A stretch of 64,000 bases of DNA from an uncultured Actinomycetota bacterium (lineage in GTDB: Bacteria; Actinomycetota; Actinomycetes; JAHEKZ01), in NCBI GenBank assembly GCA_963829525.1, contig CAWHIJ010000003.1, positions 2,048,001-2,112,000 on the forward strand. Direction: 5' to 3'. The stretch's first letter is position 1. Every line of letters begins with the position of its first letter. Of the stretch, positions 12,239 to 53,838 are shown piece after piece. The translations under genes were made by a program, and so were the position numbers. The notes under the pieces were generated by a model. It did not search any database and was not told the origin of the DNA. It saw only the letters and a program-made list of their open reading frames with translations.

Positions 12239-12263
12239 CTGCGGGCCAACGGCCCACAAGCGG

Positions 12264-37098: not shown

Positions 37099-38268
37099 AT
37101 GACCCAGCAGCAGACTCCGATCCGGCCCGTCCAGACGCTGTCCTTAGCCGACCGTTACCTGGCGTTGGTGACGCCGGAACGCGAGTCGAAGTTCCACTAC
37201 CTCTGGCTGCGAGACAACTGTTGGTGTGACGCGTGTCGGGTTGCTCAGTCAGCTGAACGCCGTATCTACACCGCCGATATTCCTGCGAACATCGCGCCCA
37301 CGGACGCACATCTGGACGACGACACAGCCACGCTTCAGTTGCGCTGGAACGACGGCCACACCTCCAGCTTCAGCCTCGCTTGGCTGGAGTCCAACGACTA
37401 CTCCAACGGAGCGGCTGAACCGTCGCCAAAGGTGACGCTCTGGACCTCCAGTCTCGACGCTCCCCCGAGGTTCGAGCACAGCGAGGTCGTCGGGCAGCCA
37501 GACGTTCAGCTGGCCTACCTCGATGCCATCCGAGAGCACGGAGCGGCCATTGTTTCCCACACGCCGTCGCTAGACGGCGAAGTTGCCCGTTTCGCCGAAG
37601 TCGTTGGTCATGTACGCGAGACCGCGTTCGAGCGCGTCCACAATGTGCGCCACGACCCGCAGGGTTACAACGTTGCCCACACGCCGCTCGAGCTCAAGCC
37701 ACACACCGACCTGCCCAGCTATCACTGGCCGCCGAGTATTCAGCTGTTGCACTTCCTCGTGAATGAGTCCAGCGGTGGGGAGAGCACCCTGGTCGACGGT
37801 TGGGCGGTGCTGGCTGATCTCCGTAGTGAGAATCCAGCCGCGTTTGAGACCCTGTGCCGTGTCCCCGTCACCTTCCAGCTCTTTAGCGAGGATGAGGACA
37901 CCCGGGCCACCGCTCCCCTCGTCCAGCTCGATGCTTCCGGGCGGGTTCAGACCTTGAGATTCTCCAACCAGCTGGCATTACCGCTGCATGCACCCTTCGA
38001 CGATGTCGGGGAGTTCTACGACGCCTACCGACTGCTCGGCCAGATGATCGACAGTGATCACTACAAGATCGTCTTCAAGTGTCATTCAGGTGACCTCCTG
38101 ACCGTCCATTCGCACCGAGTGCTGCACGGACGTAAAGCCTTTGACCCAGAGAGCGGCGCGCGTCACCTGCAGGATGTCTACATGGAGTACGACGACCTGA
38201 TGGACCGACACAATGTCCTGAGTGGAACCCACAAACCAATGCCATCGACCGGAGTTGACCTAAAATGA
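37099..38268 (+). CDS. Fe(II)/2-oxoglutarate dioxygenase, gamma-butyrobetaine hydroxylase (BBOX/TMLD/TmpA)-like
   Basis: N-terminal zinc domain WLRDNCWCDAC...W.DGH; HTD and RVLHGR iron/2OG motifs; GAGGAG RBS. Confidence 0.9.
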   Translation: MTQQQTPIRPVQTLSLADRYLALVTPERESKFHYLWLRDNCWCDACRVAQSAERRIYTADIPANIAPTDAHLDDDTATLQLRWNDGHTSSFSLAWLESNDYSNGAAEPSPKVTLWTSSLDAPPRFEHSEVVGQPDVQLAYLDAIREHGAAIVSHTPSLDGEVARFAEVVGHVRETAFERVHNVRHDPQGYNVAHTPLELKPHTDLPSYHWPPSIQLLHFLVNESSGGESTLVDGWAVLADLRSENPAAFETLCRVPVTFQLFSEDEDTRATAPLVQLDASGRVQTLRFSNQLALPLHAPFDDVGEFYDAYRLLGQMIDSDHYKIVFKCHSGDLLTVHSHRVLHGRKAFDPESGARHLQDVYMEYDDLMDRHNVLSGTHKPMPSTGVDLK

Positions 38269-38837
38269 CCTCGACGTCGCACACTGTCTCGTTCACGGCG
38301 ATGGAGCATGGGACCCGTGAAGACTACGAGTTCCTAACCTCACTCGAGGAAGGCGAGATGCAGGGCTTCGCTGACCGCGTTCTCGGATGGCTGCAGACCA
38401 TGGACGACTCGGTCGGCTATCAGATTTCACGCCTGGATCACTCGCTTCAAGCCGCGACGCGCGCTCACCGATCGGGCGAAGACGAGGAGACCGTAGTTTG
38501 CGTTCTGCTTCACGATATTGGCGACTACCTGGCTCCCGCCAATCACTCGGAGGTAGCTGCGGCCGTCTTGCGTCCATATGTGAGCGAGAAGAACTACTGG
38601 ATCGTCAAGCATCACGGTCTGTTCCAAGGTGTGTACTACTTCCACTTCGTCGGCGCAGATCCCAACGCGCGCGATCGCTTCAAGGACCACCCCTATTACC
38701 AGGCAACCATCGACTTCTGCGCCAACTACGACCAGAACTCGTTTGATCCCGCTTACGACTCGGAGCCACTGGAGTTCTTCGAGCCCATGGTCCGCCGCGT
38801 TCTCGCCAAGCCTGTCAACTTCGAGAGCGACACGTAG
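38265..38837 (+). CDS. HD-domain protein (PhnZ/TmpB-like diiron motif set)
   Basis: DHSLQAATRA, LLHDIGD, NH, HH and D motifs; ATGA overlap with the dioxygenase. Confidence 0.85.
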   Translation: MTSTSHTVSFTAMEHGTREDYEFLTSLEEGEMQGFADRVLGWLQTMDDSVGYQISRLDHSLQAATRAHRSGEDEETVVCVLLHDIGDYLAPANHSEVAAAVLRPYVSEKNYWIVKHHGLFQGVYYFHFVGADPNARDRFKDHPYYQATIDFCANYDQNSFDPAYDSEPLEFFEPMVRRVLAKPVNFESDT

Positions 38838-38946
38838 TTGCGAAGACCCTCCCCGGCTGCGGCAACCAGGGGCCAGGATTGCTGTCAGACTACTGCTGAG
38901 GTGGCGGCACCAGTGTTCTTGTGGCCATGGAGAGTGGAGGAACAGC

Positions 38947-39375
38947 ATGCCGCAGACAACAGGCAGCGAGCTTGAGTCAGTGTCCCTGTTTTCGGGGCTG
39001 AATGCGCACGAGCTCGACGTCATCGCCGGACTGCTCACCATCGAGTCCTACGCGAACGGTCTGAGCATCGTTCGCGAGGGCGAAGTCGGGTATGTCTTCT
39101 ACGTCATCAAGAAGGGTCGTGCAGAGGCTTCCCACGAGGGCACGTTACTGCGGGAGCTCGGAGAAGGAGACTTCTTCGGCGAGATCGCGATTGATGGTGA
39201 CGGCAAGAGATCAACCACGGTGACCGCTCGCGGTGACCTTGAGGTCTGGGCCATGTTCGGCACAACCCTCGGCCAGCTCGAGCGCGAACATCCCGAGATC
39301 GCCTCAGCCCTCGGAGACACCGTGCGCGAGCGCCTGGCGGCTGACCGCGCTCAACATCCCCACCGACCGGATTGA
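38947..39375 (+). CDS. Stand-alone cyclic-nucleotide-binding domain protein
   Basis: LFSGL, IVREGE, GDFFGEIA...RSTTVTA motifs; GGAGG RBS. Confidence 0.88.
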   Translation: MPQTTGSELESVSLFSGLNAHELDVIAGLLTIESYANGLSIVREGEVGYVFYVIKKGRAEASHEGTLLRELGEGDFFGEIAIDGDGKRSTTVTARGDLEVWAMFGTTLGQLEREHPEIASALGDTVRERLAADRAQHPHRPD

Positions 39376-39455
39376 CTCCATGAGCTCATCGCTCGGCGTT
39401 ACTTCGTCATCGAGCTCGCCTTGGCCAGGGCTTTGCCTACCGGCTGGACCTAATC

Positions 39456-40412
39456 TCAGTGGCAACTTCCTTGAGCATCGTCGATGTACCGCGGCTGGCC
39501 GTCCGCAGACACCCAGCTTGACTCCCAGCGGCCGTCAAACAGGCGGAGCTCCACAAAGCCGAACGCCTTGCCCTGGCCGCGGACGAACGTTTCCGGCTGA
39601 GTGTGGAAGTTTCCGAAACCGTTGAGGTTGCGCCCGCCAGCCCCAGAAACGAACTGTGTGATCCCTCGGTCCGGGTCATACCTTCCGCTGGGATCGGTCG
39701 GCATCCACCGTGAGTAGTTGTGATTGTGACCCGCGAGGAGGATGTCCACCCCTTGGCGATAGGCCAGCCGGTAGAGAGGAGCCGTGCGGAGTAGCTCGTA
39801 GCTTTGGGTCCAATCCGCTTTCTGGTACTTCAGCCAGTCCCATCGGGGGTGGTGCCAGACCGCGATCGTGCACCGAGAGTCGCTCTGTTCCAGGTCCGCT
39901 TTCATCCATTCGTACTGCTCCGACCCAGGTTGGCATTCGACTCCCCCGGCGCCGCAGAGGGTGGAGTCCAGGGTGACGACATGCCAGCTGCTGCCCAGGT
40001 CATATGAGTACCAAGGGCCAGGCGCACGATTTCCGAAGTACCTGAAGTAGCCGTTCGCCCCTTCTGTTCCCCAGTCGTGGTTTCCGGCACTGGGAGCGGT
40101 GATGGGCAGGAGCTCCCCCCAGTACACGTCATAGTTGTCGACGAAGTTGCGGTACTCCCCGTACTCGTACTGAACGTCGCCCAGTAAAAGCAACTTGTCG
40201 TACGCCCCATTCAAAATCGACTTTGCGACGTCGTCGTACTGGCACACGCTGCGGTTGTTGCCTGGGGGGTTCTTACAGGCGATGTCGCCAACGGCGGCCA
40301 CTCGGACTGGCACAGGGCTGGGCGATGGCGCACTTCCCCCGGCGACAGGTGCGAAGACAAGAAAGACAGTGGCCGTCGCCACCAGAGCCGTGATGATCGA
40401 ACGCTTCACCAT
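39456..40412 (-). CDS. Secreted metallophosphoesterase (purple acid phosphatase-like)
   Basis: Signal peptide; VGDIA, GDVQY, GNHD, WHHP and GHNHNY motifs. Confidence 0.9.
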   Translation of the reverse strand: MVKRSIITALVATATVFLVFAPVAGGSAPSPSPVPVRVAAVGDIACKNPPGNNRSVCQYDDVAKSILNGAYDKLLLLGDVQYEYGEYRNFVDNYDVYWGELLPITAPSAGNHDWGTEGANGYFRYFGNRAPGPWYSYDLGSSWHVVTLDSTLCGAGGVECQPGSEQYEWMKADLEQSDSRCTIAVWHHPRWDWLKYQKADWTQSYELLRTAPLYRLAYRQGVDILLAGHNHNYSRWMPTDPSGRYDPDRGITQFVSGAGGRNLNGFGNFHTQPETFVRGQGKAFGFVELRLFDGRWESSWVSADGQPRYIDDAQGSCH

Positions 40413-40568
40413 GACCGCGAGGCTAGGTCTGCGCGCAGGGAAAGCGCAACGACTTCGGCGCGCGTATTGAGTCAGCCTGGCCGCCGCCCTTGAGGCGGTC
40501 GGCGCCGCTGCCGGTGCAGTTCGCCTGACTAACGGGCACTGTCCGGTGCGGGCTCCGCGCCGTTCAGG

Positions 40569-42122
40569 TCAGCAGCCGCCCGAGGTCTTGCTGCGCTGCA
40601 GGGACTGGCGGCTCGTCACAGACTTGCCGCGGTCCAGGTCATAACCGCGCTGCCAGTCGGAGATGAAAAGAGTCTTGTTCATCTCGTGGTTCCGGTCACC
40701 GTCGAGGCTCAGTCGCATCGTCAGCGGGACGCCAGACACGGCCGCGCGGCTGACGGTGCCGATTGCACCGCCGTTGTAGAACCACGTGATGTGCCCACGG
40801 GTGACCTCAACCGCGAAGGCCACCGCCCGGCCCTCGGGAAGTCGGATCTGCCGCTTTGCCTGCCACTGCCGCGTGCCGTGTCGAGCGCCAATAGCGACCG
40901 TCGAGCCGCCGACACGCACGCTGGCCACCGTGATATTGCGGCTCCCGCAGGCGTAGTCCCTGGCACGGTCGGGGACGAGTTCGATCTTGGCCGTGAAGTC
41001 CTTGGCACCGATTTCGAGCCGCTTAAGGCGCATCTTCGCTTCCCAGCGGCCGTATGTCCTTGCGTTGTCTCGCAGGGTCACTGACGTCGTCCCGAAGTCA
41101 CCAGGTCCAGACCATACGCGCCCGCTGTCCAGCAGAAGGCCGCCATTGTGCCGGCCCGCACGCCCCAGACCGTTGGAGCGGTCCGACCACCAGCCCTTGC
41201 GGTCAGTGCCCCGGCTGGGACGGCTGGTCAGCGACTGACCCTGCTCCCATGCGAAGTCCCACAGCGACTGACCCCACTTGTGGGTGCCACCGGCAGTTGC
41301 GGCAACCGACGTGTTGGTGCCGCTCTTCGTCGAGAAAGTCGTGTCACTTGGTGCAGACGGCAGCTTCACACACGAGCCGGAGGAGTTGGCGTTCGCCAGG
41401 ACGTCGACGGGAGTCGGGAACGACGGGAACCACCCGACCTGGCTGCCGCCCTTCGTCCAGTTCTCCTGGCGGACCCGGTACACCGGACAGCCTGGGTCAG
41501 TCGGGGGCACAACGAACGAACCGTTGCCTTTGGAGTCGGTCGTCGTGGTGGCCAACTTGTTCCAACCACCTTGGGCGTCGCGTCGCTCAAGTGTCAGACC
41601 GCGGCCCGGGAACACCGGCGACGGCAGGTCCGGCCGGTGCGACAGCACCGGCGTGGTGTCCACCTTGATGGTGAACTGGCGGCCAGACATCGCTTGTCCG
41701 AAACCAACGGAGGAGGAGTTGGGGACAACGGTCAGAACCAGATCCTGCGAGCGGGCGCTGAACGAATGCGCCGGTGTGGCCACGCCGCGCGAGGCCACCC
41801 GGTACTTGATGCCAAACATCGAGGGCGCTGGGTACTTGAACTTGAAGCTTCCGTCGCGCGAGGTCATGGTGCGAAAGCCCTCGACCTTGTTCCACTCGTC
41901 GCCTGGACGCCCCATGTTGGACTGAAGCCAGATCTTCCGGGCACCGTTAACGCCCAGATTGCCGCGGAATGTGACGGCCTGACCTCCGACGTACTGATTC
42001 GGCGATACGGCCAATGACCCACTGATTTTCGCTGCCGCCGGCCCAGCCGGGGCGATGTTGCCGAGTAGTGAGGCGGCGATCGCCCCAGCGACCACCAAGT
42101 AGAAGGGCCTGAACTGCTTCAT
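40569..42122 (-). CDS. Secreted protein with Ig-like segments and a C-terminal GH16/ConA-like domain
   Basis: Signal peptide; YGRWEAKMR and FAVEVT..HITWFYNG segments; no ExDxxE motif. Confidence 0.65.
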   Translation of the reverse strand: MKQFRPFYLVVAGAIAASLLGNIAPAGPAAAKISGSLAVSPNQYVGGQAVTFRGNLGVNGARKIWLQSNMGRPGDEWNKVEGFRTMTSRDGSFKFKYPAPSMFGIKYRVASRGVATPAHSFSARSQDLVLTVVPNSSSVGFGQAMSGRQFTIKVDTTPVLSHRPDLPSPVFPGRGLTLERRDAQGGWNKLATTTTDSKGNGSFVVPPTDPGCPVYRVRQENWTKGGSQVGWFPSFPTPVDVLANANSSGSCVKLPSAPSDTTFSTKSGTNTSVAATAGGTHKWGQSLWDFAWEQGQSLTSRPSRGTDRKGWWSDRSNGLGRAGRHNGGLLLDSGRVWSGPGDFGTTSVTLRDNARTYGRWEAKMRLKRLEIGAKDFTAKIELVPDRARDYACGSRNITVASVRVGGSTVAIGARHGTRQWQAKRQIRLPEGRAVAFAVEVTRGHITWFYNGGAIGTVSRAAVSGVPLTMRLSLDGDRNHEMNKTLFISDWQRGYDLDRGKSVTSRQSLQRSKTSGGC

Positions 42123-42380
42123 TAAGACGGTTCCTCCGGGTATCGCGGAAATCCGACTCTCTAGATGTCGGCCGGAAGTAAGGCTCGCTTGAGCCGATGC
42201 TTATTGGGGATTCAAAAAACCGTACACCAGCCGGCATGAAAACAAAGAACCCAACTGGCTACGGCGCGGCGAAGCCATCTCCACACCGGCACTCGTTCCA
42301 TATGAGACCGTCGGGTACCAGACCTTCCCATGCGGGGCCGTAACCATGTCGTGGAGTATGGTCCGGCTTCGCGACTGTGC

Positions 42381-42480
42381 GCATAATCATGCACGGGAAG
42401 CGGTTGAGCGCTGTGCGACCGCGCCTGCTAAACGTGCATGATCCTCAAACCCACCCTTGCCTGACCTTTGGTCGCAATGA
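42381..42480. repeat. Degenerate copy of the att-like inverted-repeat element
   Basis: 42401-42421 matches 45155-45175 at 20/21 nt; shared downstream TCGCAATGA; own inverted repeat ATCATGCACG (42386) / CGTGCATGAT (42433). Confidence 0.7.
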
Positions 42481-42600
42481 CTTGGGGACGGCCGGGGGTC
42501 GCGAGCCGGTGGGTGTGGAGGACGTAGGGCTCTGCCGGAACCAATCTGTGCTTGATGTACTGGCTCAGGACTCTCTGGGGCCTCATGCGCGGAGGTTCGG

Positions 42601-44025
42601 ATGCGTAACCCTCGAAGCGGGCAGAGTGGTTCCAGACGTCGCTTGACGTCCGTGCTGGCCATGACGAGCGTTTGCCTGGCTCTTGCCGCGTCGTTTCAGG
42701 CAGAACCCGGTAGTGCGCGTGTGATCGCCCCGAATCCCTCCTCTCTCCCCAACATCCTCTTGATCGTCGTCGACGACCAACCCAAGGGCACCCAGGACGC
42801 GATGCCCAATCTGCTCAACCGGGTCGCCGCCAAGGGGGCCACGTTCTCCAACGGCATCGCACCCACCGCACTCTGCTGCCCATCCCGATCGGCGTTGCTC
42901 ACCGGAAATCACTCCCACACCACCGGGGTGTGGGGCACCGACCCCGCGTCGCTCGGGGGATGGCCAGCCCTGCATCCCCACGAGTCGCAGACCATCGCCA
43001 CCGCCCTCGATACGGCGGGCTACCACACCGGTCTGTTCGGCAAGTACGTCAACGACTTCCATAAGTTTCGCCCCGACGGGTACATCCCACCCGGCTGGGA
43101 CACGTTCCGCGCCATCCTGGCTGCCGATGGAGGAGACGGCGCGTACTACCACTACAGATTGACCGGCCTCCACAGGCATTTCGGGGCGGAGCCCCGGGGC
43201 TACTCCACCGACGTCACCGGCAGGCTCGCTGTCCGGCACATCGAGAACACCCCAGCTGGAACCCCCTGGTTCGTCTACTACTCCCCGTTCGGCCCGCACT
43301 CACCCATGACACCTGCTCCCCGACACGAAGGGACCTGGCCCCTGGAACCGGCATCTGCCATCGACGCGTTCAACGAGCGACGGGTGTCCGACAAACCTCC
43401 CTGGATCCAGAAACTTCCCTTGGCCAACAAGCTGGTAATGAGAGCCCGCCTGACCAGGCAGCATGAGGTCGTTCGCTCCATCGACGAGCAGTTGGGCGAC
43501 CTACTGGACGCCGCTAACCTGTCCAAGACCCTCGTCATCTACCTGTCCGACAACAGCTTGATGCTCGGGGCGCACCGCATCACCGGTAAGGACGTTCCGT
43601 ACCGTCGCGCCACAGAAGTCCCGATGTACGTTCGGTGGGATGGGGTCACGTCGCCAGGGACGATTAAGAGCCGGGTCACCCCGCAGATCGACCTCACGGC
43701 GCTCATCGCAGACGCCGCACATGTCCCGTGGACGATGGAAGGTCGCAACGCCCTGACCACTCGGCGTGCGGGGTCAGTGGTAGAGCAGATCCGCATGACC
43801 CGGTCCTACGCCAACCACCCCGCCTACTGCGGATGGCGAAGCCGCCGCTACTTGTACGTTGCGTACGACACCGGGCAAGGCCGCGAGTTCTACGACTACA
43901 AGCGCGACCCGCAAGAGCTCGTCAATGTCATCAACGTGCGTGACTACGCGGACCGGGTCGCCAGACACAGAGCACAGGCCAAGGCTAGCTGCCGTCCCGA
44001 ACCTCCCGGCTTCAACTGGCATTGA
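42601..44025 (+). CDS. Secreted formylglycine-dependent sulfatase
   Basis: PNILLIVVDD, CCPSRSALLTG, GY.TGLFGKY and SDN motifs. Confidence 0.92.
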   Translation: MRNPRSGQSGSRRRLTSVLAMTSVCLALAASFQAEPGSARVIAPNPSSLPNILLIVVDDQPKGTQDAMPNLLNRVAAKGATFSNGIAPTALCCPSRSALLTGNHSHTTGVWGTDPASLGGWPALHPHESQTIATALDTAGYHTGLFGKYVNDFHKFRPDGYIPPGWDTFRAILAADGGDGAYYHYRLTGLHRHFGAEPRGYSTDVTGRLAVRHIENTPAGTPWFVYYSPFGPHSPMTPAPRHEGTWPLEPASAIDAFNERRVSDKPPWIQKLPLANKLVMRARLTRQHEVVRSIDEQLGDLLDAANLSKTLVIYLSDNSLMLGAHRITGKDVPYRRATEVPMYVRWDGVTSPGTIKSRVTPQIDLTALIADAAHVPWTMEGRNALTTRRAGSVVEQIRMTRSYANHPAYCGWRSRRYLYVAYDTGQGREFYDYKRDPQELVNVINVRDYADRVARHRAQAKASCRPEPPGFNWH

Positions 44026-44102
44026 ACCCCGACCCCCGTTAGCCCACCTCCGATAGACCTCAAGAGTCGAGCTAGACCGAACACTGTGCCAGTCTGTGGA
44101 AG

Positions 44103-45125
44103 ATGAATGCTGCAGATGACCGTGAGACGCGACTTGACGAGTTGATGACGGCCATTCAGCGGGCCGGCATTCTCCGGGCCTTTGTGGAGTTGGACCTGCC
44201 GGGGGCTTTGGAGGTCGACAAAGGAAGCAGTGTCGGTGATCTGGCCGATTCAGTTGGTGCTCTCCCGGAGCTGCTGGAGCGGCTCTTGCGGGGTGCTTCT
44301 GCTCTCGACCTCTGCGTAGAGGAGGTCGGGGCCTGGCGACTCACCGCGTCCGGTGCATCTCTTCGACGCGACGAGCCGGACGACCCTGCCGGGTGGGTCA
44401 TGCTGTTGACGGCACCATGGATGGCGTTGCCTTGGATTTCTCTCGCGGACGCGGTTCGAACCGGTGAGCCAGCCTTCTCGCAGGTTCATGGCGTCGGTTT
44501 CTGGGAGTTTCTTGCAGGCCATCCCGCGGAGGCCAAGGCATTCGATGCGGCGTTGGCCACCGAAGGTACCGAGCGTGCCTCAGACCTTCACCGAACCACC
44601 GACCTTGCCGGCGCAATCACCATCGTCGATGTGGGCTGTGGACATGGCACGTTGCTCGGCGAGCTCCTGAGCCGACTCCCGGAGGCAACTGGGGTCGCGT
44701 TTGATCGTGAGGAAGTGATTCGTTCAGTTCCCGAAGTCGTTAGGCTCGCAGATCGCTTGGAGCTCAGGGCCGGAGACTTCTTTGAGGAGATACCTCGCGG
44801 GGGCGATGTCTATGTGCTCTCACGAATCCTTCATGACTGGTCGGACGAGGATGCCGAGCGGATTCTCCGAAGCTGTCGACGCTCCGTATCGTCGACTTCG
44901 AGACTCGTCCTCCTGGAGCAGGTGGCCCAGGAAGCGTCAAGCCTCGATCAGAGTTCGAAACTCGAACTCGCTATGAAGGATCTCAACATGTTGGTCCTGG
45001 TCGGAGGCAAGGAACGCACCGTAGCTGACTACCGAAGACTCCTCGAGGCAGCCGGGTTTCAGCTGGAGCACGTCCACACAGGCGAGGCCTGCGACGTACT
45101 ACAAGCCCGTCCAGTCAAGGGATGA
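44103..45125 (+). CDS. O-methyltransferase (Methyltransf_2)
   Basis: VDVGCGHG, GDFF, ILHDWSD and GGKERT motifs. Confidence 0.92.
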   Translation: MNAADDRETRLDELMTAIQRAGILRAFVELDLPGALEVDKGSSVGDLADSVGALPELLERLLRGASALDLCVEEVGAWRLTASGASLRRDEPDDPAGWVMLLTAPWMALPWISLADAVRTGEPAFSQVHGVGFWEFLAGHPAEAKAFDAALATEGTERASDLHRTTDLAGAITIVDVGCGHGTLLGELLSRLPEATGVAFDREEVIRSVPEVVRLADRLELRAGDFFEEIPRGGDVYVLSRILHDWSDEDAERILRSCRRSVSSTSRLVLLEQVAQEASSLDQSSKLELAMKDLNMLVLVGGKERTVADYRRLLEAAGFQLEHVHTGEACDVLQARPVKG

Positions 45126-45126
45126 A

Positions 45127-45261
45127 CTTAGTCAAGATAGTCGCGCACCAGAAACGGCTGAGCGCTGTGCGACCGTGCTCAGCAAACGTCCAGGTCGCAA
45201 GCGCTGTGCAGTGCAATATCCTGGACTGAGCAGTCACGAAACCGGTTGCTGATCGCAATGA
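45127..45261. repeat. Direct copy of the hrdB 3' end embedded in an imperfect inverted-repeat element (att-like)
   Basis: CTTAGTCAAGATAGTCGCGCA (45127-45147) versus CTTAGTCCAGGTAGTCGCGCA (50809-50829); inner inverted repeat 45161-45174 / 45193-45205; outer inverted arm 45217-45230. Confidence 0.8.
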
Positions 45262-45378
45262 GCGGGCGGCGAGTCGTGACCCTCATCGGGGACGCGGGAC
45301 CGGTAGTCAAGCAGATGGCTCGCTTCGGGCGTCACCAGCCGCTACCGTCGGATGATTCGTCACGAAGGTGGGCCTAAC

Positions 45379-45987
45379 ATGAGCCTGTACCACGCCGGCA
45401 ACCGCCAACTTCAGGACCGCTTCGACACTCGACTGCTGGCGGACAGGCTTGACGAAGTCATCGTCAACGAAACGATCAGCGAGTCGGACGCCGAGTTGAT
45501 CTCCTCAGTCGACCACTTCTTTCTCGCAACAGTCAACCCGGCTGGGGCGCCAACGGTCAGTTACAAGGGCGGAGCACCTGGCTTCGTTCAGATAGTTGAC
45601 GAGCGCACGCTCGCGTTCCCGAACTACAACGGCAACGGCATGTACCTGTCGATGGGTAACGCGCTTGAGAACGGCATGGTCGGCATGCTTTTCCTTAACT
45701 GGTCGAAGGGGCATCGGCTCCGTCTGCACGGCTCAGCATCCATCAACCCTGACGACCACCTGCTCGATGACTATCCCGAGGCTGAGTTTGTCGTCCGGGT
45801 GCAAACCACCAGTGTTTTTCCGAATTGTCCTCGGTACATCCACCGCATGGAGAAGCAAGAAGAGTCGGTGTTTGTGCCTCGGGCTGGTCGCCGCACGCCC
45901 GTCCCGGCCTGGAAGCACTCTGACTGGGCGATGGAGGTGCTACCCCAGGGCGATGCCGCTTACGACCCAGATGCACCGGTCGCCTAG
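45379..45987 (+). CDS. Pyridoxamine 5'-phosphate oxidase-family FMN-binding protein
   Basis: FFLAT, SYKGG.PGFV, GNGMYLSMGN and NCPRYI motifs. Confidence 0.88.
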   Translation: MSLYHAGNRQLQDRFDTRLLADRLDEVIVNETISESDAELISSVDHFFLATVNPAGAPTVSYKGGAPGFVQIVDERTLAFPNYNGNGMYLSMGNALENGMVGMLFLNWSKGHRLRLHGSASINPDDHLLDDYPEAEFVVRVQTTSVFPNCPRYIHRMEKQEESVFVPRAGRRTPVPAWKHSDWAMEVLPQGDAAYDPDAPVA

Positions 45988-46009
45988 CGCTGCTCGGTCA
46001 ATGCCGTGA

Positions 46010-46520
46010 AGGTGGCGGTGCGCGCCCAAGTAGGTGAGTGCCTCGGCCCATCGCTCAGGGAGGTCAGAGAACTCTTCAGGCCCGGGGAGGTAGGCCCGCG
46101 TTGAGGTCACCAAACGGCGCGTACCAGCGATAGGTCCTCCCGGCAGGACGAACGGAAGGCAAGGCGACAACGTGTCGATGGCGGTGACGAACGGTCTCCA
46201 CGTCAGGACCATGTCATTGCGCCACTTGAGTGCCCTTATGCCCAGCAGGGAGCTTGAACAACATAACCCTGCTCGGCCCGCTCCCCCGGGATGTTGCTGA
46301 CCACGTAGGGGTGGCGGTCCCCACTCTGCCTCCGCGGCGGCGAGGGTCTGCTGGCCACGCTTGTTGCGGTAGGCGTCGACATCGATGCCCCCGACGTTGA
46401 CGGGGGGGCCGCTGGGCCAGGTCCCTTCCCGACGCTGCCGAAGGACTTCGTCGAGCTCCGCCTCGGTGAGGTCAACGCAAGCGGCTCCGGTCGATCCCAC
46501 CGGTACGTGGGTCGGGCCTG
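46010..46520 (-). pseudogene. Relic of a bifunctional DNA primase/polymerase (AICE/actinophage Rep-like)
   Basis: GIDVDAYRNKRGQQTL...WGP in one frame, GPDVETVRH..RHVVALPS..P.GRTYRW in another, then P.PEEF.DLPERW; multiple frameshifts; boundaries approximate. Confidence 0.65.
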
Positions 46521-46526
46521 AAGGGG

Positions 46527-46913
46527 TCAGGCCATGCCGGTGACGGTGTCGGCTGTGAGGACGCAGAACTCGTTGCCCTCGGGGTCGGCCATCACGGCCC
46601 AGGTGTCGGGGTTGGCCAACGTCTCGGGGTCCTGCCGCAGCTCGATGAGACGGGCACCGATGGCGACAAGCTGGTTGACCCCCTCGCCGAGGGGTCCGTC
46701 GACCGTGATGTCGACGTGGAGTCGGTTCTTCATTGACTTCGGCTCGGGCACGTTCATGAAGTACAACGGTGTTCCGCCACTTGACGGGTCGCTGACCTCG
46801 TACTCGTCGGTGTTGCGTTCCGATACGCGGTGGCCAAGAACGTCGGCCCACCAATGCATCTGCGCCAGCGAGTCGCGGCAGTCCACAACCACACCAAGCA
46901 ACGAAAGCGCCAT
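46527..46913 (-). CDS. VOC/glyoxalase family protein
   Basis: VVVDC, VPEPK..KNRLHVD and MADPEGNEFCV motifs. Confidence 0.92.
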   Translation of the reverse strand: MALSLLGVVVDCRDSLAQMHWWADVLGHRVSERNTDEYEVSDPSSGGTPLYFMNVPEPKSMKNRLHVDITVDGPLGEGVNQLVAIGARLIELRQDPETLANPDTWAVMADPEGNEFCVLTADTVTGMA

Positions 46914-47210
46914 AGGTCCTCCCGTTCCCCCGGCAAACTACCTCCGCCCGGTTGCCACAGACAAGGCAACAATCGAGGCGCCTGTCCATCGACCGCGCTG
47001 GATGCCGGATTCGCGGCGCCTAACGGCACGTCGGAGCGACCGTGTTTGCCGTCCTAACGCGTTCGGTGGTCGAACGCGGCCTCGGGGTTCAGGCAGGCGA
47101 GACTTACCGAGTCGTCGACTTCGACAAGGCCTCGTGGAGGACCCTCACCGCGATCACATGCGACGGGCGGGACCCGAAGGTCCCGCCCGCCAATTTTGAA
47201 TCCGGTTCTG

Positions 47211-48392
47211 TCAGCGGAACTTGAACTCAGCGGTGTGAGTGGTTCCGTCGGAGAGGGTCAGTGTCATGATTCGGCACTGTCCCTTGTAGAGCTTCGGGGT
47301 CTGCCAGTTGAACTGCCAGTTGCCATCCCCTTGGTAGAGGAGACCCGAGGCGTTGGTGTAGTTCTCAACCGCGTCGAAGCCAATATCCGATAGGTCAGTG
47401 CAGTTGATTTGCTGAGACCGCAAGGAGACGAAACTTGCCGCGTCTGATACTGGTGTGGTGCCGTCGAGTAGACGCCACTTCACCGGGATCGTCTGACCAG
47501 CTGTGGCCACGTTGACGAGGTTGTTGTCGATGGGACTCTTGAAGCCCTGGAACGCATACGTGGACGAGGTTGTGATCTTGAGGGCCACGGTTCCGTTCGG
47601 GGTCCAGTTGGTGTCCTCACGGAAGATCCCAACTCCTGCTGCCCCACCATCGGCGTACCAGCCCGCGGTTGAGGTGTTCCAGAACACGTTGTCCGTGTTG
47701 ACGTCGCTGCCGACCGTGACCGGCTGGTTCGAGGGAATTCCCACGTTCAGCGAGTTGTACGGTCCGTTTTGGCCGATCGGTGCCGCGCCGTAGTTGGCGG
47801 TGTTGTAGGCGATCCCGACGATCACTGAGTTCGGCAGGGTTGCGCCGAGACCACTCATGTCGAACGTCGCATTGAACGCTAGACCGTTGTAGCAGGTCCC
47901 GTTCCCTGCCCTCCACGCAAACCCGACCCCGTATCCCGTGTCGGGGCAGGTCGGGTCCGCAGCAGGACGCCACGGGATGGTCACGTTCTGTGTCGTTGTG
48001 CCCAAGAGGTTGTTTGGTACGCCTTGGGCGTCCAGTGTGTCGGCGTAGATGTTCACAGTGATCGGGTGCGTCCAGCTCGTCGAGTTCCCTGAGTACCGAG
48101 CATCGGACGCATAGTCGGCATACACCGCCCAGGTGCTCATCGTGACCGTGACGCTGCTCAATGCCCGGTTGGTTCCACCGAGGTTGACGTGGTCCCCGAA
48201 CTCAGCAGTTTGTGTCGCCTGAAAGCCCAGGCTCGGGACATTTGGCGGCAGCGGTGACGGGGTGGCGTCGTAGACAGTCACGCTTGCCGGGGCAGCGTTC
48301 GCTGGCGCGAACGTCATCAGAGAGCCAGAGACTGCAAGAGCGAGGCCGAACAGACCCACACTGCCCGCAGTACGTAACCGATTCAAACGCAT
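47211..48392 (-). CDS. Secreted protein with a C-terminal PxKF-like domain
   Basis: Signal peptide from ATG 48392 (GAAGGG RBS); FQGFKSPIDN...AGQTIPVKWRL...WQFNWQT. Confidence 0.8.
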   Translation of the reverse strand: MRLNRLRTAGSVGLFGLALAVSGSLMTFAPANAAPASVTVYDATPSPLPPNVPSLGFQATQTAEFGDHVNLGGTNRALSSVTVTMSTWAVYADYASDARYSGNSTSWTHPITVNIYADTLDAQGVPNNLLGTTTQNVTIPWRPAADPTCPDTGYGVGFAWRAGNGTCYNGLAFNATFDMSGLGATLPNSVIVGIAYNTANYGAAPIGQNGPYNSLNVGIPSNQPVTVGSDVNTDNVFWNTSTAGWYADGGAAGVGIFREDTNWTPNGTVALKITTSSTYAFQGFKSPIDNNLVNVATAGQTIPVKWRLLDGTTPVSDAASFVSLRSQQINCTDLSDIGFDAVENYTNASGLLYQGDGNWQFNWQTPKLYKGQCRIMTLTLSDGTTHTAEFKFR

Positions 48393-48638
48393 GTGATCAA
48401 ACCCTTCCGATCTTGTCGGGTAACACCAACTCGGGCCATCCACCTCGGGAAGAACAAGGAAGATGACGAGGGCTCTTGGGCTCTTCGACCCAAGTAACTC
48501 TCGTTCTAGCGTGCGACAGCCTCGACGCTCTAGGGGCTTTGTGCTCTCTGACTCCGCGTAGTCGCTTGGTGACAACTGAAGGGCGTCCATGCCACTCGTG
48601 GCACGCCGAGACGGGCTCTTTGCGTGTAGAGACCTGGT

Positions 48639-48660
48639 CTCGGAAACGAGCGTTTCTGAG
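48639..48660. other. res-site-like palindrome
   Basis: CTCGGAAACG-AG-CGTTTCTGAG immediately before the resolvase codons. Confidence 0.55.
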
Positions 48661-49299
48661 GTCAGCACACAAGAGCAAGACGAAGCACTCCAACGCGACG
48701 CCCTCGACGCAGTTGGATGTGAACGCCTCTTCGTGGACAAAGCATCCGGGGCCTTGGACAGTCGACCCGCCCTAGACGCGATGCTCGACCAGCTGCGAGC
48801 CGGCGACCTGGTGGTGGTGTGGCGGCTGGACCGGCTGGGCCGGTCACTACGCCACCTGATCGACGTGGTGGCAGACCTTGAATCACGTGGCGTGCAGCTA
48901 CGCAGCCTGACGGAGAACCTGGACACCTCCACACCGAGCGGGAAGCTCACCTTCCACGTCTTCGCCGCGATGGCGCAGTTCGAGGCGGACCTCATCCGGG
49001 AACGCACGCAAGCCGGCCTGGCTGCGGCAAGGGCTCGAGGCCGCACAGGTGGCAGACCGACGGTGTGGACCGCGGAGAAGCTGGCGACGGCACGGGCGAT
49101 GTACGAGTCCGGTGAGCAGGATGTCGCCACCATCGCCCGGGTACTCGGGGTCAGCAGGGCGTCGGTGTACCGAGGTCTCGCTGTTGGCTCTGAGCTCCTG
49201 AGGTCGGCGGCATCCCCAATGGCCCTCGATACCTCGTCGTGCGGCCCGCGGCCCCCCTCAACATCCATCCACAAACCTGAGGATCGCCAGCGGGAGTAG
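48661..49299 (+). pseudogene. Serine recombinase (resolvase/invertase), 5'-truncated
   Basis: VST.EQ...QRDAL, SGA..SRP, VVWRLDRLGRS, ERT.AGL.AARARGR.GGRP and HTH LGVSRASVYR; lacks the M..GYAR start. Confidence 0.8.
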
Positions 49300-49392
49300 C
49301 CCGGCGGGGACGTTGGCCTCTGGCCGTCAAGGTGCCGAGCGGCAGACTGGGAGTGGGCAACGAGTGCCCCAGCGAATTGGGAAGGGGTCAAG

Positions 49393-49740
49393 ATGTCCAC
49401 TGTTGCGAGCAACGCTCCAGCGACTAGCCCTGCAAAGAGGAACCTGATCCGCGCTTGGGTGTCCTTGGGACTGATGGTGCCCGGTTTCGTCGGGCTGATG
49501 GCGTTTGGCGAATGGTCGGATACCGAGAACGCTCCTGCCTTCGCGTCAGTGTTGACCGTGGTGATGGTCGCCCTCTTGGCGGCCTTCGCGGCGGGCGCCG
49601 TGTGGTTCGGCGTGCAAGCACGCAGGCTAGGCAGGCGTGCGGGCCTCGTGCCTGCGATCCTGGCCGGGCTCGGCGGTGCCTACTTCCTGGTCGGGTTCGT
49701 CGCCCAACTGCTCAACGGGGGGGAGCCCTTCGGGGGCTGA
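49393..49740 (+). CDS. Small 3-TM membrane protein
   Basis: 115-aa hydrophobic ORF with a GAAGGGG RBS. Confidence 0.7.
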   Translation: MSTVASNAPATSPAKRNLIRAWVSLGLMVPGFVGLMAFGEWSDTENAPAFASVLTVVMVALLAAFAAGAVWFGVQARRLGRRAGLVPAILAGLGGAYFLVGFVAQLLNGGEPFGG

Positions 49741-50156
49741 CCCCCCGGGCCGTCATCACTCTGATCCTGGGTGTGGCCTGGGCGGGGATCAGCATGTCGG
49801 TCTCACGAGAAGCCGTAGAGCCCCGCTGCACGAGAACGTTGAGTGGCTGGCCTCACGTGCCACCTGACCCCCACCGAGAGACCAACGAGCACCACGACGT
49901 CGCCACCATCGCCGGGTGCTGGGGGTCAGCAGGGCGTCGGTCTATCGCGGACTCTCGTCATGAGCCTTGGCGAACCCGCTCTCACGATTCCAGTGGCTAC
50001 CTTCGACCATAGGCTCTCAACCCACGAAGTCAGCTCAAGGCAGGACCCAGTGACAAGGAGAACAACCATGGCCCCGGATCTTGCCGGCGACTGCCCATCG
50101 CGCTGGGGCGGAATGAGGGAACCGGAGATCACGTGCGGCGCACTTCCGCCGAACCG

Positions 50157-50733
50157 TCAGGGAATCGCCACTCTGGTTTCGCAGGTGGTAGCGGTGTCAG
50201 TCCCGGTGCCCCCCGTCGCAAGTGTCGGTTCCCACACCACCCGTCAAGGCGTCGATACCGGCTTGGCCATACAGCTTGTCGTTGCCGCCCAAGCCGGAGA
50301 TGGTGTCGTTACCGTCCTGACCGGAGATCGTGTTGACTCCATCGGTTCCCGTTAGCTTGTCCGCACCAGGGGATCCGCTGATATTCTCCAGAAGGGACAG
50401 GGCGTCGGTGCCTTCACCGGTCGCGGTGCCGGTAGCCAGGTTCACGGTGACCGCAAGGGCCTTGCCGAAGTGGGCTGTGTCAAGACCTGCACCACCGTTG
50501 AGACGGTCGTTGCCAAGTCCGCCACCCATCGTGTCGTTCCCAGCGCCACCCAGGAGGTTGTCCGGGTTGCCCTGCCCCCAGATCCCGTCGTTGCCGCCGC
50601 CGCCGTTGAGAACGTTGGTGCCCCCGTTCCCGTCAAGCTTGTCAACGTAGGGCGAACTGACCAGGTTCTCGATGTCCTCCAGAGTGTCGGTGCCCTGACC
50701 AGTCGCCCTGCCGGTCGTGAGGTTCGCCGTCAC
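50157..50733 (-). pseudogene. 3' fragment of a hemolysin-type (RTX) Ca2+-binding repeat protein
   Basis: GGxGxD repeats; no signal peptide or N terminus; a +1 shift in the C6 run near 50210 restores ...CDGGTGTDTATTCETRVAIP*. Confidence 0.75.
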
Positions 50734-50809
50734 GCGACACGCCTTGGTGTCAAAACAAGTCAGGAATATGCCTCTGACCTGCGCAAATGTGATCTCAGCG
50801 CGAAAAGGC

Positions 50810-52234
50810 TTAGTCCAGGTAGTCGCGCAATACCTGCGAACGGCTCGGGTGACGCAGTTTGCTCATGGTCTTCGACTCGATCTGACGAATCCGCTCACGA
50901 GTGACGCCGTAGACCTTGCCGATCTCATCCAACGTCTTGGGCTGACCATCGGTCAGACCGAACCGCATCGAAACGACGCCTGCCTCGCGGTCCGACAGGG
51001 TGTCGAGCACCGCATGCAACTGCTCCTGCAACAAGGTGAACGAAACCGCGTCCGCGGGAACGACAGCTTCGGAGTCTTCAATGAGGTCACCGAACTCGCT
51101 GTCGCCGTCCTCGCCGAGCGGAGTGTGCAGCGAGATCGGCTCGCGACCGTACTTCTGCACCTCGACAACCTTTTCCGGCGTCATGTCGAGTTCTTTGGCG
51201 AGCTCTTCCGGAGTCGGCTCCCGGCCGAGATCCTGCAGCATCTGCCGCTGAACGCGGGCGAGCTTGTTGATGACCTCGACCATGTGCACCGGGATGCGAA
51301 TGGTGCGGGCCTGGTCCGCCATTGCACGTGTGATCGCCTGACGGATCCACCACGTTGCGTACGTCGAGAACTTATAGCCCTTTGTGTAGTCGAACTTCTC
51401 GACTGCACGGATGAGTCCGAGGTTGCCCTCCTGGATCAGGTCCAGGAAGAGCATGCCGCGTCCGGTGTAGCGCTTGGCCAGCGAGACGACCAAACGAAGG
51501 TTCGCTTCGAGCAGGTGGTCCTTGGCGCGACGACCATCTTCGGCGATCCACTCGAGCTCCCGGTGCATCTTGGCTGAGAGCTTCTTTGTGCCGTTGAGCT
51601 TCTCTTCGGCGAAGAGTCCGGCCTCGATGCGCTTGGCCAGCTCGACCTCCTGCTCGGCGTTGAGCAGGGCAACCTTTCCGATTTGCTTGAGATAGTCCTT
51701 GACCGGGTCAGCTGTGGCACCGGCAACGGTGACCTGCTGGACGGGCTCATCCGACTCATCTCGGTGTGAGATCACGAAGCCCTTCTCTTCAGGCTCCTTC
51801 TTCAACTCCTCAGCGATCTCTTCGTCGCTGACCGGCATGCCATCGTCGGCGACAGGGATCTCGACCGTCGCAGTCTCGGCAGCGGCGGCACCCTTCTTGG
51901 CGGCGATCTTCTTTGCCGGTGCCTCAGCCTTGGCGGGCGCAGCCTTCTTCGCGGAAGCGTCATTCTTAGCGGGAGCCTTGGCGGCCGACTTCTTCACCGC
52001 GACCGGCTTCTTGGCGGGAGCCTTGGTGGTCGGCTTCTTGGCTGGAGCGGCCTTCTTGGCCGTCGCCTTCGTTGAGGCAGGCTTCACTCCCGCCTTCACC
52101 GGGGCCTTCTTGGCGGGAGCCTTGGCGGCCGGCTTCTTGGGTGCCGAAGCCTTGCTCTTCGCAGCGGTCTTGGGTGCGGACTTCTTCGCAGGAGTCTTGG
52201 CGGCCTTGGTAGCAGTCTTGCGAGCAGCGCTCAT
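50810..52234 (-). CDS. hrdB: Principal RNA polymerase sigma factor (HrdB/SigA)
   Basis: [41 protein letters not shown] and TRERIRQIE motifs, LRDYLD end; Ala/Lys/Pro-rich N terminus. Confidence 0.98.
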
Positions 52235-52372
52235 AGGAGCGGTTGCCTCCTTGCGGGATGCGGGCAGCCGTCATGCGGGCACGCGTAACGGGAGTATGCG
52301 GAGATCGGCTGCTGCGCCGAGGGGTGGAAGGCTGACCTGGGGATCGGCCCCGGAGTAGGCGCGGCAGTAGAC

Positions 52373-52378
52373 ATTGTA
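52373..52378 (-). promoter_or_regulatory. Candidate -10 element of hrdB
   Basis: TACAAT on the minus strand about 140 nt upstream of the start. Confidence 0.45.
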
Positions 52379-52422
52379 GTCAACGCCATCGGTGGTCTTG
52401 CTCTTCCCCCGCCGAGGTGGGG

Positions 52423-52830
52423 TCAGGCGTCTGCGCGCTTGACCGCGAGAACCGGGCAGGTGGCGTCCAACAGGACACGCTGCGCGTTGCTGCCCATGAT
52501 CAACTTCCCCACCGGGGTGCGCCTCCGGAGTCCGATCACGATCATCTCTGCGGAAACTTCCCCGGCAATCGCCACCAGGTCGTCGGCAGGGTCATTGCCA
52601 CGGATGAGCCCTCGGACGTCGTGCTCGATGCCTTCGGCATGGAGGCGGTCGTGGATGGCCTCCACTTGCTCGTTGGTGAGGGCCATCTCCTCGTAGTCGG
52701 CCGTCCGGCCGCCCCGCTGAGAGTTGACCACCAGCAGGTTGCTCCCCCGAAGCTTGGCCTCATCGACGGCGCGATCGAGGGCCGCCTCGCCCTCTGGGCT
52801 CGGCACGTAACCCACCACGATCGTCCCCAT
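52423..52830 (-). CDS. Universal stress protein
   Basis: TIVVGY...IVIG.RRRTPVGKLIMGSNAQRVLLDA.CPVLAV. Confidence 0.93.
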   Translation of the reverse strand: MGTIVVGYVPSPEGEAALDRAVDEAKLRGSNLLVVNSQRGGRTADYEEMALTNEQVEAIHDRLHAEGIEHDVRGLIRGNDPADDLVAIAGEVSAEMIVIGLRRRTPVGKLIMGSNAQRVLLDATCPVLAVKRADA

Positions 52831-52941
52831 GCAGACCTCCTCGACAGTCCAGGACTCCTGTGAACGCCGGGCCAAATGGTCCGACCTTCCAGACAGAGCC
52901 TGGCCGGACGCTACCCCACCTGCGGGCTATGGGCCAGGACC

Positions 52942-53838
52942 TCAGCCGATGACGAGCTCAGCCCTGGCCTCGACCACCGACACCGCTAAGGGGCCGACCG
53001 TCTGAACGACCGGGTCACCCCCAACCGGCCACGGCCCCATGCCATCGACGGTGAACCACGCCTCCCAGGTACTGCTCACCGAAACGGGGTAGCTGCCCGC
53101 ATGTGCATAAGGGTGGTTGACCGCCATCTCCGGCCAGGCACCACCCGGCTCGTCAGTCGTAAAGGCGTGGCCGTCCCCGAAGTCCCACGTCCACGTCGCC
53201 CGGCCGTCGAGGACGATGTCGAAGCCGACGAGCTGAAAGCGACGCTCTCCCAGCCTTGCTGGCTGACCCGACGCGAACACCGCTGGCAGCCCTATCAGGG
53301 TGCCTCCCTTCGGCTGAGACGTCGGCTGCAGCGGTGGGACGTTCTCAACCACGACGTCGGAAAGCTCACTGGCAACGTCGTCGATCGTCGTTGGCGCACC
53401 GCCAACCAGACAGACCAAACCGACCTCGCGCCAATCGATGTCGCCGGGTCGGAGGAGCAAGACGATCCGCCGGAACTCCCCCGGCGGGCAGGACGCAGCA
53501 GCCCCACCACACTCGACCCCACCAGCCTGGCCGTTGCCGCGGCACATCGGCAGCAGCGCCCAGCGGCACTCCGGACAGGTCGCTGCGTCCCTGCGGTCGG
53601 CGTCACTACCCGTAAAGCTGCCGGCCGGGAGCAACAGGCCACCCCTCCCGACGTATTGAGCCCCATCAGGGTCGGCAACCACATCGCAGTCGGCGCCAAC
53701 GCACGGCTGCACGCTGAAGGCCGGAGTCGACGGCAGCCAGGCCACCAACAGTCCGAGCACACCGCTGACAACGAGCAATGCACGCAACGGCGTCCGCCGC
53801 GTGCGTGGCCCCGCGGCAACAGGTCTCCCCCAGATCAT
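52942..53838 (-). CDS. Secreted Cys-rich protein with a C-terminal PKD-like domain
   Basis: Signal peptide; eight Cys; WTWDFGDG...HPY..AGSY motif. Confidence 0.75.
   Translation of the reverse strand: MIWGRPVAAGPRTRRTPLRALLVVSGVLGLLVAWLPSTPAFSVQPCVGADCDVVADPDGAQYVGRGGLLLPAGSFTGSDADRRDAATCPECRWALLPMCRGNGQAGGVECGGAAASCPPGEFRRIVLLLRPGDIDWREVGLVCLVGGAPTTIDDVASELSDVVVENVPPLQPTSQPKGGTLIGLPAVFASGQPARLGERRFQLVGFDIVLDGRATWTWDFGDGHAFTTDEPGGAWPEMAVNHPYAHAGSYPVSVSSTWEAWFTVDGMGPWPVGGDPVVQTVGPLAVSVVEARAELVIG

Follow-up and report, generated by a model that had tools for sequence, protein, structure and literature searches.

Why does a copy of the last codons of an essential gene lie several kilobases from the gene itself? 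We addressed this question in a 64,000-nucleotide stretch (hereafter, the window) of the genome of an uncultured Actinomycetota bacterium (GTDB lineage Bacteria; Actinomycetota; Actinomycetes; JAHEKZ01), which covers positions 2,048,001 to 2,112,000 of contig CAWHIJ010000003.1 in assembly GCA_963829525.1. Here hrdB, the gene for the principal sigma factor, ends with a 21-mer at 50809-50829 (CTTAGTCCAGGTAGTCGCGCA) that recurs in direct orientation at 45127-45147 (CTTAGTCAAGATAGTCGCGCA), with 19 of 21 bases identical. Read on the minus strand, both 21-mers give CGC GAC TAY CTN GAC TAA, or RDYLD followed by a stop, and the two mismatches are synonymous, exactly as an initial annotation of this DNA had stated. 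That annotation proposed that the 3' end of hrdB is an integration site and that the incoming element supplies a synonymous replacement tail. This proposal is supported by a longer conserved unit that we find at the distal copy, by the linkage of that unit to an integrase gene, by its occurrence in the Streptomyces phage Kromp, and by its position downstream of hrdB in a sample of the class. We consider it highly probable that temperate phages and phage-like islands of one family, equipped with a small Xer-like tyrosine integrase, use the 3' end of hrdB as their bacterial attachment site (attB). The family of actinobacterial phages and islands docking at the hrdB tail is widespread, and the window holds the two scars, attL and attR, of one decayed insertion.

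The repeat is confined to these two places. Allowing up to three mismatches, we recovered only the two 21-mers in the window, where 100 shuffles gave an expectation of 0.00, and the same two in the whole genome of 2,959,090 bases, with no control matches. Similar matches scattered at random through the genome, which the initial annotation had named as grounds against its proposal, are therefore not what the search returned: both genomic matches are the sites in question. The gene at the proximal site is a principal (group 1) sigma factor gene, with regions 1.2, 2, 3 and 4 all present according to Pfam. The last 263 residues of its product match one gene at 74-100% identity in 139 of 151 genomes of the class, and in most of these 139 there is a single match at E 1e-110 or better. 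No open reading frame (ORF) of at least 60 residues in the window's ORF list ends at the distal copy. A direct repeat of the gene's 3' end thus bounds the insert, with one copy completing hrdB. The 5' part of hrdB (51885-52202) encodes a Lys/Ala/Pro-rich N-terminal extension made from degenerate 45-nt tandem repeats (families D1 and D2).

At the distal site, more than a bare 21-mer is conserved: the displaced copy terminates a unit of ~105 nt, derived from a phage-type attachment site (attP), in which an 85-nt arm unlike hrdB is followed by a 20-nt core consisting of the last hrdB codons and the stop. A genome-wide profile search recovered a single full unit, at 45128-45230 with 100.8 bits, together with a decayed one at 42383-42439 (E 3e-6), both downstream of hrdB, and no further significant match elsewhere in the source genome. 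At the other end of the insert, the CTGACCTGCG motif that the initial annotation placed in the 76-bp gap after hrdB is indeed present (plus strand, 50774-50783), and on the hrdB strand it reads CAGGTCAGAGGC. It lies at +28 from the hrdB stop, the identical offset that it has in integrase-bearing Actinotalea and Phycicoccus elements; locus L216 has a CTGCTCAGAGGC variant. The window's P' arm ends at +76, where integrase-bearing elements have a CACAGCGCT box (+75), and the RTX gene that follows is cut off at its 5' end, as had been annotated. Because the 76 nt past the hrdB stop carry the +28 motif of the P' arm and break at the +75 box, we read 50734-50829 as an attL with a cut P' arm and 45127-45231 as an attR of matching type. 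A second attR relic, older than this one, lies at about 42383-42445, and this points to at least two successive insertions, both decayed. The locus is therefore a layered remnant rather than one clean element.

Metagenome contigs span the attR unit across 45006-45603. In contigs from related samples, the attR core differs from that of the window only at 45128, 45134 and 45137 (single contigs, depth below 5). All three are synonymous sites of the former codons, and the variation fits, weakly, an origin of these cores as real hrdB tails.

Table 1. Features of the hrdB region, in window coordinates.
Feature	Position	Strand	Evidence
hrdB/sigA-type principal sigma factor gene, 474 residues, intact	50810-52234	-	ORF; Pfam Sigma70_r1_2, r2, r3, r4
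attL core: final six-and-a-bit hrdB codons and stop, 20-nt identity block	50810-50829	-	Repeat and uniqueness searches
Truncated P' arm of integrated element	50734-50809	-	CAGGTCAGAGGC motif at +28 past stop
RTX/hemolysin-type calcium-binding repeat gene fragment, 5'-truncated	50197-50733	-	Pfam HemolysinCabind E 2.4e-17; ORF begins within repeats, 76 nt from hrdB stop
Relic of second resolvase C-terminal helix-turn-helix	49893-49954	+	Direct repeats D7, D15; 86-88% identity to 49117-49179
Small serine recombinase (resolvase) ORF	48589-49299	+	Pfam Resolvase E 7e-43 and HTH_7
Secreted protein with C-terminal PxKF domain (cargo)	47211-48392	-	NCBIfam NF038114 E 1.5e-27
Glyoxalase_6 family gene (cargo)	46527-46913	-	Pfam E 2.3e-24
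Possible primase-polymerase relic, weak	about 46303-46404	-	phrog_11515 E 4e-4 over 34 residues
PNPOx-like gene (cargo)	45352-45987	+	Pfam PNPOx_N E 2.5e-11
attR unit: 85-nt P arm (45148-45231) and 20-nt core (45128-45147)	45127-45231	-	nhmmer 100.8 bits, E 9e-30; alignment A1; covariance model 95.9 bits
Sulfatase and O-methyltransferase genes between attR unit and older relic unit, outer layer of variable region	42601-45125	+	Pfam
Decayed second unit (older attR)	about 42383-42445	-	nhmmer E 3.5e-7, model positions 39-95; covariance model E 4e-6; read in sequence
517-residue gene without known family	40569-42122	-	Follows last unit in four genomes

The same arrangement recurs among relatives of the source organism. 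When 40 relatives were searched with a degenerate form of the tail, three other genomes of the genus proved to have two copies. We then compared the DNA downstream of hrdB in 17 genomes of the family, representing 18 loci. The gene ends in RDYLD-stop at all 18 loci, and nine of the 17 genomes carry extra tail copies, co-oriented and downstream of hrdB. These extra copies share the ~85 nt that precede the tail and that are unlike hrdB (alignment A1, 20 copies). The unit begins with CTCAGTCCAGGATATTGCAC, which approximates the tail inverted, has two GCACAGCGC boxes ~39 nt apart, and ends in the 20-nt core TGCGCGACTAYCTNGAYTRA. Its profile matches 21 full or near-full copies at the family's hrdB loci, every one of them on the hrdB strand. 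Most family hrdB genes also have P' motifs after the stop, including those of G007 and G017, which have no unit nearby. A break in synteny, the lack of which in relatives the initial annotation would have counted against an integration site, is likewise present: a conserved gene block starts 1.8 kb past hrdB in the sister genome G007 and ~12 kb past it in the source genome.

In some of these genomes the units form arrays, with six full units and one partial unit over 13.5 kb in G005, and two to three units in G009 and in G010. The array cargo, encoded on both strands, includes secreted beta-propeller, Ig-like, BNR, RCC1 and pentapeptide proteins, a GGDEF protein, a GNAT acetyltransferase and an aldo-keto reductase. 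We scanned 44 of 67 candidate array ORFs against Pfam (at least 100 residues and passing a filter on third-position GC content); the others were overlapping antisense frames or had been scanned earlier. None of the 44 has an integrase or other recombinase domain, and the window's resolvase is the only recombinase within the arrays and the interval. Module content is nearly all genome-specific, the exception being a 517-residue gene that follows the last unit in G000 (the source genome), G005, G006 and G009c; by tblastn, its product is 72-81% identical to those encoded directly past the last unit in the latter three, and it matches no Pfam or NCBIfam family. This gene may be the ancestral hrdB neighbor in this subclade, or a very successful module. 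In G010 (locus L032), the module after hrdB (6183-6824) repeats at 11638-12279, past the second unit, with 100% identity over 642 nt, and the repeat reaches the end of the contig. Duplication or re-insertion of a module, a tandem or circular form, and an artifact of assembly are all candidate explanations. PxKF-domain secreted proteins also recur as cargo in the hrdB flank, in the window (47211-48392) and in the G010 array (L032, 9741-11426), with C-termini that look alike by eye.

We next asked how common the unit is in the class, using a covariance model restricted to sequence on 151 evenly drawn genomes from 102 genera. The unit is present in 16 of the 151 genomes and 14 of the 102 genera; two of the 16 (G053 and G059) are flagged as unpublished. 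Nine of these genomes have hrdB on the unit's contig, and in all nine the unit is downstream of hrdB and co-oriented with it, at 1.7-35 kb; in the remaining seven, the unit and hrdB are on separate contigs. The 20-nt core itself, with synonymous changes allowed, is found in 83 of the 151 genomes, with 0 control matches, and eleven genomes have two to three core copies. Three of the 83 (G025, G047 and G053) are flagged as unpublished, with G053 among the eleven. One genome has three co-oriented core copies on one contig (G155:C1:828874, 863608 and 891891), with hrdB at the last, which suggests two tandem islands of ~28 and ~35 kb.

Intact elements supply the enzyme that the window lacks. In a loose gapped-pattern scan of species-representative genomes, which provides no basis for prevalence, we scored the matches listed with the nhmmer profile and found at least 21 loci with a real unit among the 120 matches listed; the loci with a unit include records from Nocardioides, Kribbella, Aeromicrobium, Nakamurella, Actinotalea fermentans, Phycicoccus and Demequina sediminis. 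We searched five records further, and four of them (Actinotalea, Phycicoccus, Demequina and Nakamurella) have hrdB and the unit on one contig, with the unit 9.0, 10.3, 12.2 or 31.9 kb downstream of hrdB and co-oriented. In all four islands, a tyrosine integrase gene of 300-326 codons begins on the hrdB strand, ~100 nt past the stop codon of hrdB; in Demequina it is split in two pieces. The search that the initial annotation had suggested, for actinobacterial tail copies near hrdB with integrases beside them, thus finds such integrases in four of four islands. Past the hrdB stop, integrase-bearing elements have a CAGGTCAGAGGC-like motif at +28, the CACAGCGCT box at +75, GTCCAGATAT at +88 and the integrase start at about +100 to +115. 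The island integrases are 63% identical to one another and match PF00589 at E 1e-23 to 1e-25; among curated models, XerC fits them best, at 136 bits against a cut-off of 335 bits. Other island genes include DUF3631 or primase-polymerase genes, a tape-measure-like or capsid gene and, in Phycicoccus, a type I restriction system. In the Actinotalea island, the 20-nt block is the sole stretch common to the hrdB end and the far-end unit.

The closest integrase in a phage collection is that of Streptomyces phage Kromp (MH744420.1, gene 36), at 58% identity, followed by those of Cluster E mycobacteriophages at 43%. Kromp carries the unit as well (L214:2334-2435; nhmmer E 1.6e-8): it is co-oriented with the integrase gene, its core ends 77 nt before the integrase start, and the core differs from the consensus at two positions, both synonymous. 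An immunity repressor is annotated near the Kromp integrase. Kromp is thus a free element whose attP bears a core of the identical type, and with the four islands it supplies the related intact elements whose absence, according to the initial annotation, would have told against its proposal. By blastn, the unit had no match in the phage collection and the Kromp attP region matched Kromp only. Two IMG/VR proviruses also have the hrdB tail followed by an integrase gene. The anatomy of the sites, their recurrence and their link to an integrase and a phage are direct observations.

From these landmarks, we infer a model of the integration event. The attP would span ~200 bp and consist of a P arm, the core and a P' arm, followed by the integrase gene. 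In this layout, the 85-nt P arm would begin with AGTCCAGGATAT, which is the hrdB tail inverted, and hold the two GCACAGCGC boxes, the 20-nt core would equal the hrdB tail and stop, and the P' arm of ~100 nt would carry CAGGTCAGAGGC at +28, a third box, CACAGCGCT, at +75 and GTCCAGATAT at +88. Crossover would take place inside the core, leaving hrdB with an intact synonymous tail followed by P' and the integrase gene (attL), and the old hrdB tail would end up at the distal boundary of the element, preceded by the P arm (attR). The 20-nt identity block would preserve the reading of hrdB. With each further insertion beside hrdB, earlier elements would move away from the gene and internal P-core-P' junctions would arise, and later deletions would remove the integrase gene and most of each element. 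The position of the crossover, the order of these events and the matching of proteins to boxes all belong to the model.

Several results weigh against the integration of a phage-like element at this locus. Pfam found no integrase (PF00589) ORF between the window's two sites, so that this feature of an intact element is missing, and tblastn of the integrase, DUF3631 and primase-polymerase proteins of intact islands against window positions 38000-53000 gave nothing better than E 0.047. Nor does the source genome have a cognate integrase elsewhere: it has only two Xer-like genes, at 31-35% identity, and its tyrosine recombinases are all far from hrdB. The initial annotation's remark that no integrase survives here was, on all these searches, correct. 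Past the attR core, we find the end of a convergent methyltransferase gene and no recognizable ancestral hrdB flank. No family genome has a clean empty site, as G007 and G017 keep the P' motifs, and four metagenome runs gave no excision or empty-site joints, the Logan contigs being of depth ~2-5 and uninformative on this point. The island integrase has no lambda-type arm-binding domain, being 300-326 residues long with a SAM-like domain that begins at about residue 33. Finally, integration of Kromp at hrdB is a prediction from its sequence, in which the core was compared with the unit consensus.

The arrays raise the alternative that the hrdB flank in this genus is a still-active gene-capture platform, in which modules without an integrase, bounded by full P-core-P' junctions, are moved by an integrase acting in trans, as in integrons, instead of being the dead remains of whole elements. 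The arrays fit this idea in that they are free of recombinases, that their units are no less conserved than units from distant taxa (75-108 bits) with two unit subtypes within one array, that P'-like motifs are kept at internal junctions, and that module content is almost wholly genome-specific; the recurrence of the G010 module past a second unit would also be expected, but that repeat runs into a contig end and could be an artifact of assembly. Like the integron system of IntI, attI and attC, the arrays have co-oriented short sites that separate modules of one to three genes beside a fixed anchor, a unit with inverted ends and a Xer-like recombinase. Unlike in integrons, however, the arrays lack the integrase gene, which the element itself carries beside the anchor, and the integrase scores far below the integron-integrase cut-offs (TIGR02249, 20-43 bits against 265; NF011946, 20-27 against 435). 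Module genes run both ways, and a folded hairpin of the attC kind has no support. A cognate integrase was found in none of 18 of the 20 family genomes searched, and the other two, G011 (same genus) and G015, have only relics, directly after hrdB. Moreover, tandem integration followed by deletion yields identical junctions. We therefore regard active capture as unlikely. We are similarly doubtful of a variant in which infecting phages of the Kromp type supply the integrase, and the modules, most of which encode secreted beta-propeller, Ig-like and PxKF proteins, enter, are rearranged and disappear beside hrdB; if this were true, read-through from the strongly expressed hrdB could drive the newest module.

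Two further explanations dispense with integration and seem to us very improbable. The distal copy could be the remnant of a deleted second sigma gene, a sigB- or hrd-type paralog downstream of hrdB. In mycobacteria, sigA and sigB are in the same orientation a few kilobases apart, and the distal copy has this orientation and spacing and keeps the RDYLD-stop reading. The 85 nt before the copy, however, resemble no sigma gene, yet this non-coding DNA is conserved across orders and in a phage. One array has as many as six full copies, and no ORF ends at the window copy or at the extra copies in G001 and G010, on which grounds we rejected the paralog. It is just as hard to credit that the 19/21 match arose by chance in GC-rich DNA, or that it is part of a structured RNA or a terminator with no connection to recombination. 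By our own estimate, about one direct match of 19/21 is expected over all position pairs of the 64-kb window, and the minimum-free-energy fold of the unit is a long imperfect hairpin. But this particular word is unique in the genome, the unit occupies the same place in many taxa, and it is physically linked to an integrase gene. A folded site or RNA was also rejected: as DNA, neither strand folds better than shuffled sequences (z = -1.12 and -1.05), RNAalifold predicts 17 pairs with 0 compensatory changes, and an Rfam search with E up to 1 returned no match close to the unit.

The 5.5 kb between attL and attR are a decayed patchwork of unrelated cargo and gene fragments (Table 1). The initial annotation had described a truncated resolvase here; the ORF does encode a resolvase, which matches Pfam Resolvase from profile position 7 with the usual N-terminal strand replaced, and its truncation is plausible but not proven. 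The annotated primase-polymerase relic corresponds to a single weak phrog_11515 match, and the same segment has no Pfam match and no tblastn match to the primase-polymerase or DUF3631 genes of intact islands. We also considered the resolvase as the enzyme of the hrdB site and rejected it, given that no recombinase domain occurs in the 44 ORFs scanned from other arrays; it is cargo or a secondary insertion. Resolvase homologs are found close after hrdB in two other genera, in G015 (69% identity; L058, about 2206-2577), where the gene is directly beside the integrase relic, and in G017 (43%). Resolvases near hrdB may represent a second kind of element landing in the same region. At their hrdB loci, relatives have no close homologs of the sulfatase and O-methyltransferase genes of the outer layer.

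To enter a conserved gene at its 3' end is a textbook strategy. Passages of PMC3029335 describe tyrosine-integrase elements at the 3' ends of transfer RNA (tRNA) and transfer-messenger RNA (tmRNA) genes, with mycobacteriophages at tRNA genes and phages CrimD and Angelica at the tmRNA gene. As with those elements, the attP of the hrdB family carries a copy of the gene's 3' end beside the integrase gene, integration places the integrase gene beside the target gene, the gene is restored with a displaced copy at the far end, and repeated use leaves tandem remnants. Unlike those elements, the hrdB family enters an essential protein gene at its coding tail, so that codons constrain the identity block and its variation is limited to synonymous positions, and the integrase is short and Xer-like, without a lambda-type arm-binding domain. 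Elements that depend on XerC/D and use dif (integrative mobile elements exploiting Xer, IMEX) also involve a recombinase that is Xer-like by sequence, but the hrdB elements encode their own integrase, to which host Xer genes are just 28-38% identical, and target the hrdB tail instead of dif. Kromp shares with the hrdB-adjacent elements its integrase and the arm and core upstream of the integrase gene; it differs in having GCATGG as its internal boxes, as opposed to GCACAGCGC in the unit, and in being an intact 58-kb phage, whereas the window has att scars only. Cluster E mycobacteriophages (244, Cjw1, Pumpkin and others) resemble the family in their integrases, but the hrdB-tail core was not found upstream of their integrase genes. 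In Mycobacterium phage 244 (L215:1790-1975), the region upstream of the integrase gene has two GATAATACAC...CGCT motifs that, by eye, resemble the unit's opening motif and a GCACAGCGC box. A passage of PMC3029335 reported in 2011 that the Cluster E attB was not identifiable.

Novelty appears to lie in the target, the hrdB tail, and not in the kind of element, which is known. According to the initial annotation, this target is not known to have been described, and we likewise found no paper naming hrdB, sigA or rpoD as attB in the full-text literature, with supplements and most subscription journals outside the search; the passages on sigA in PMC9934374 and PMC13626063 are irrelevant to attB, and tables of provirus borders such as those of PMC13626063 could list the hrdB site. 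As a target, the site is unusual in being the coding tail of an essential gene, and it is also conserved. Because the 20-nt core is present in 83 of the 151 class genomes, an integrase and attP pair aimed at the hrdB tail could give a broad-host-range tool for single-copy integration in actinomycetes. The motifs in phage 244 may also help to find the attB of Cluster E mycobacteriophages. For the organisms themselves, the DNA after hrdB is a predictable hotspot for prophages, for defense islands such as the type I restriction system in Phycicoccus, and for strain-specific surface proteins.

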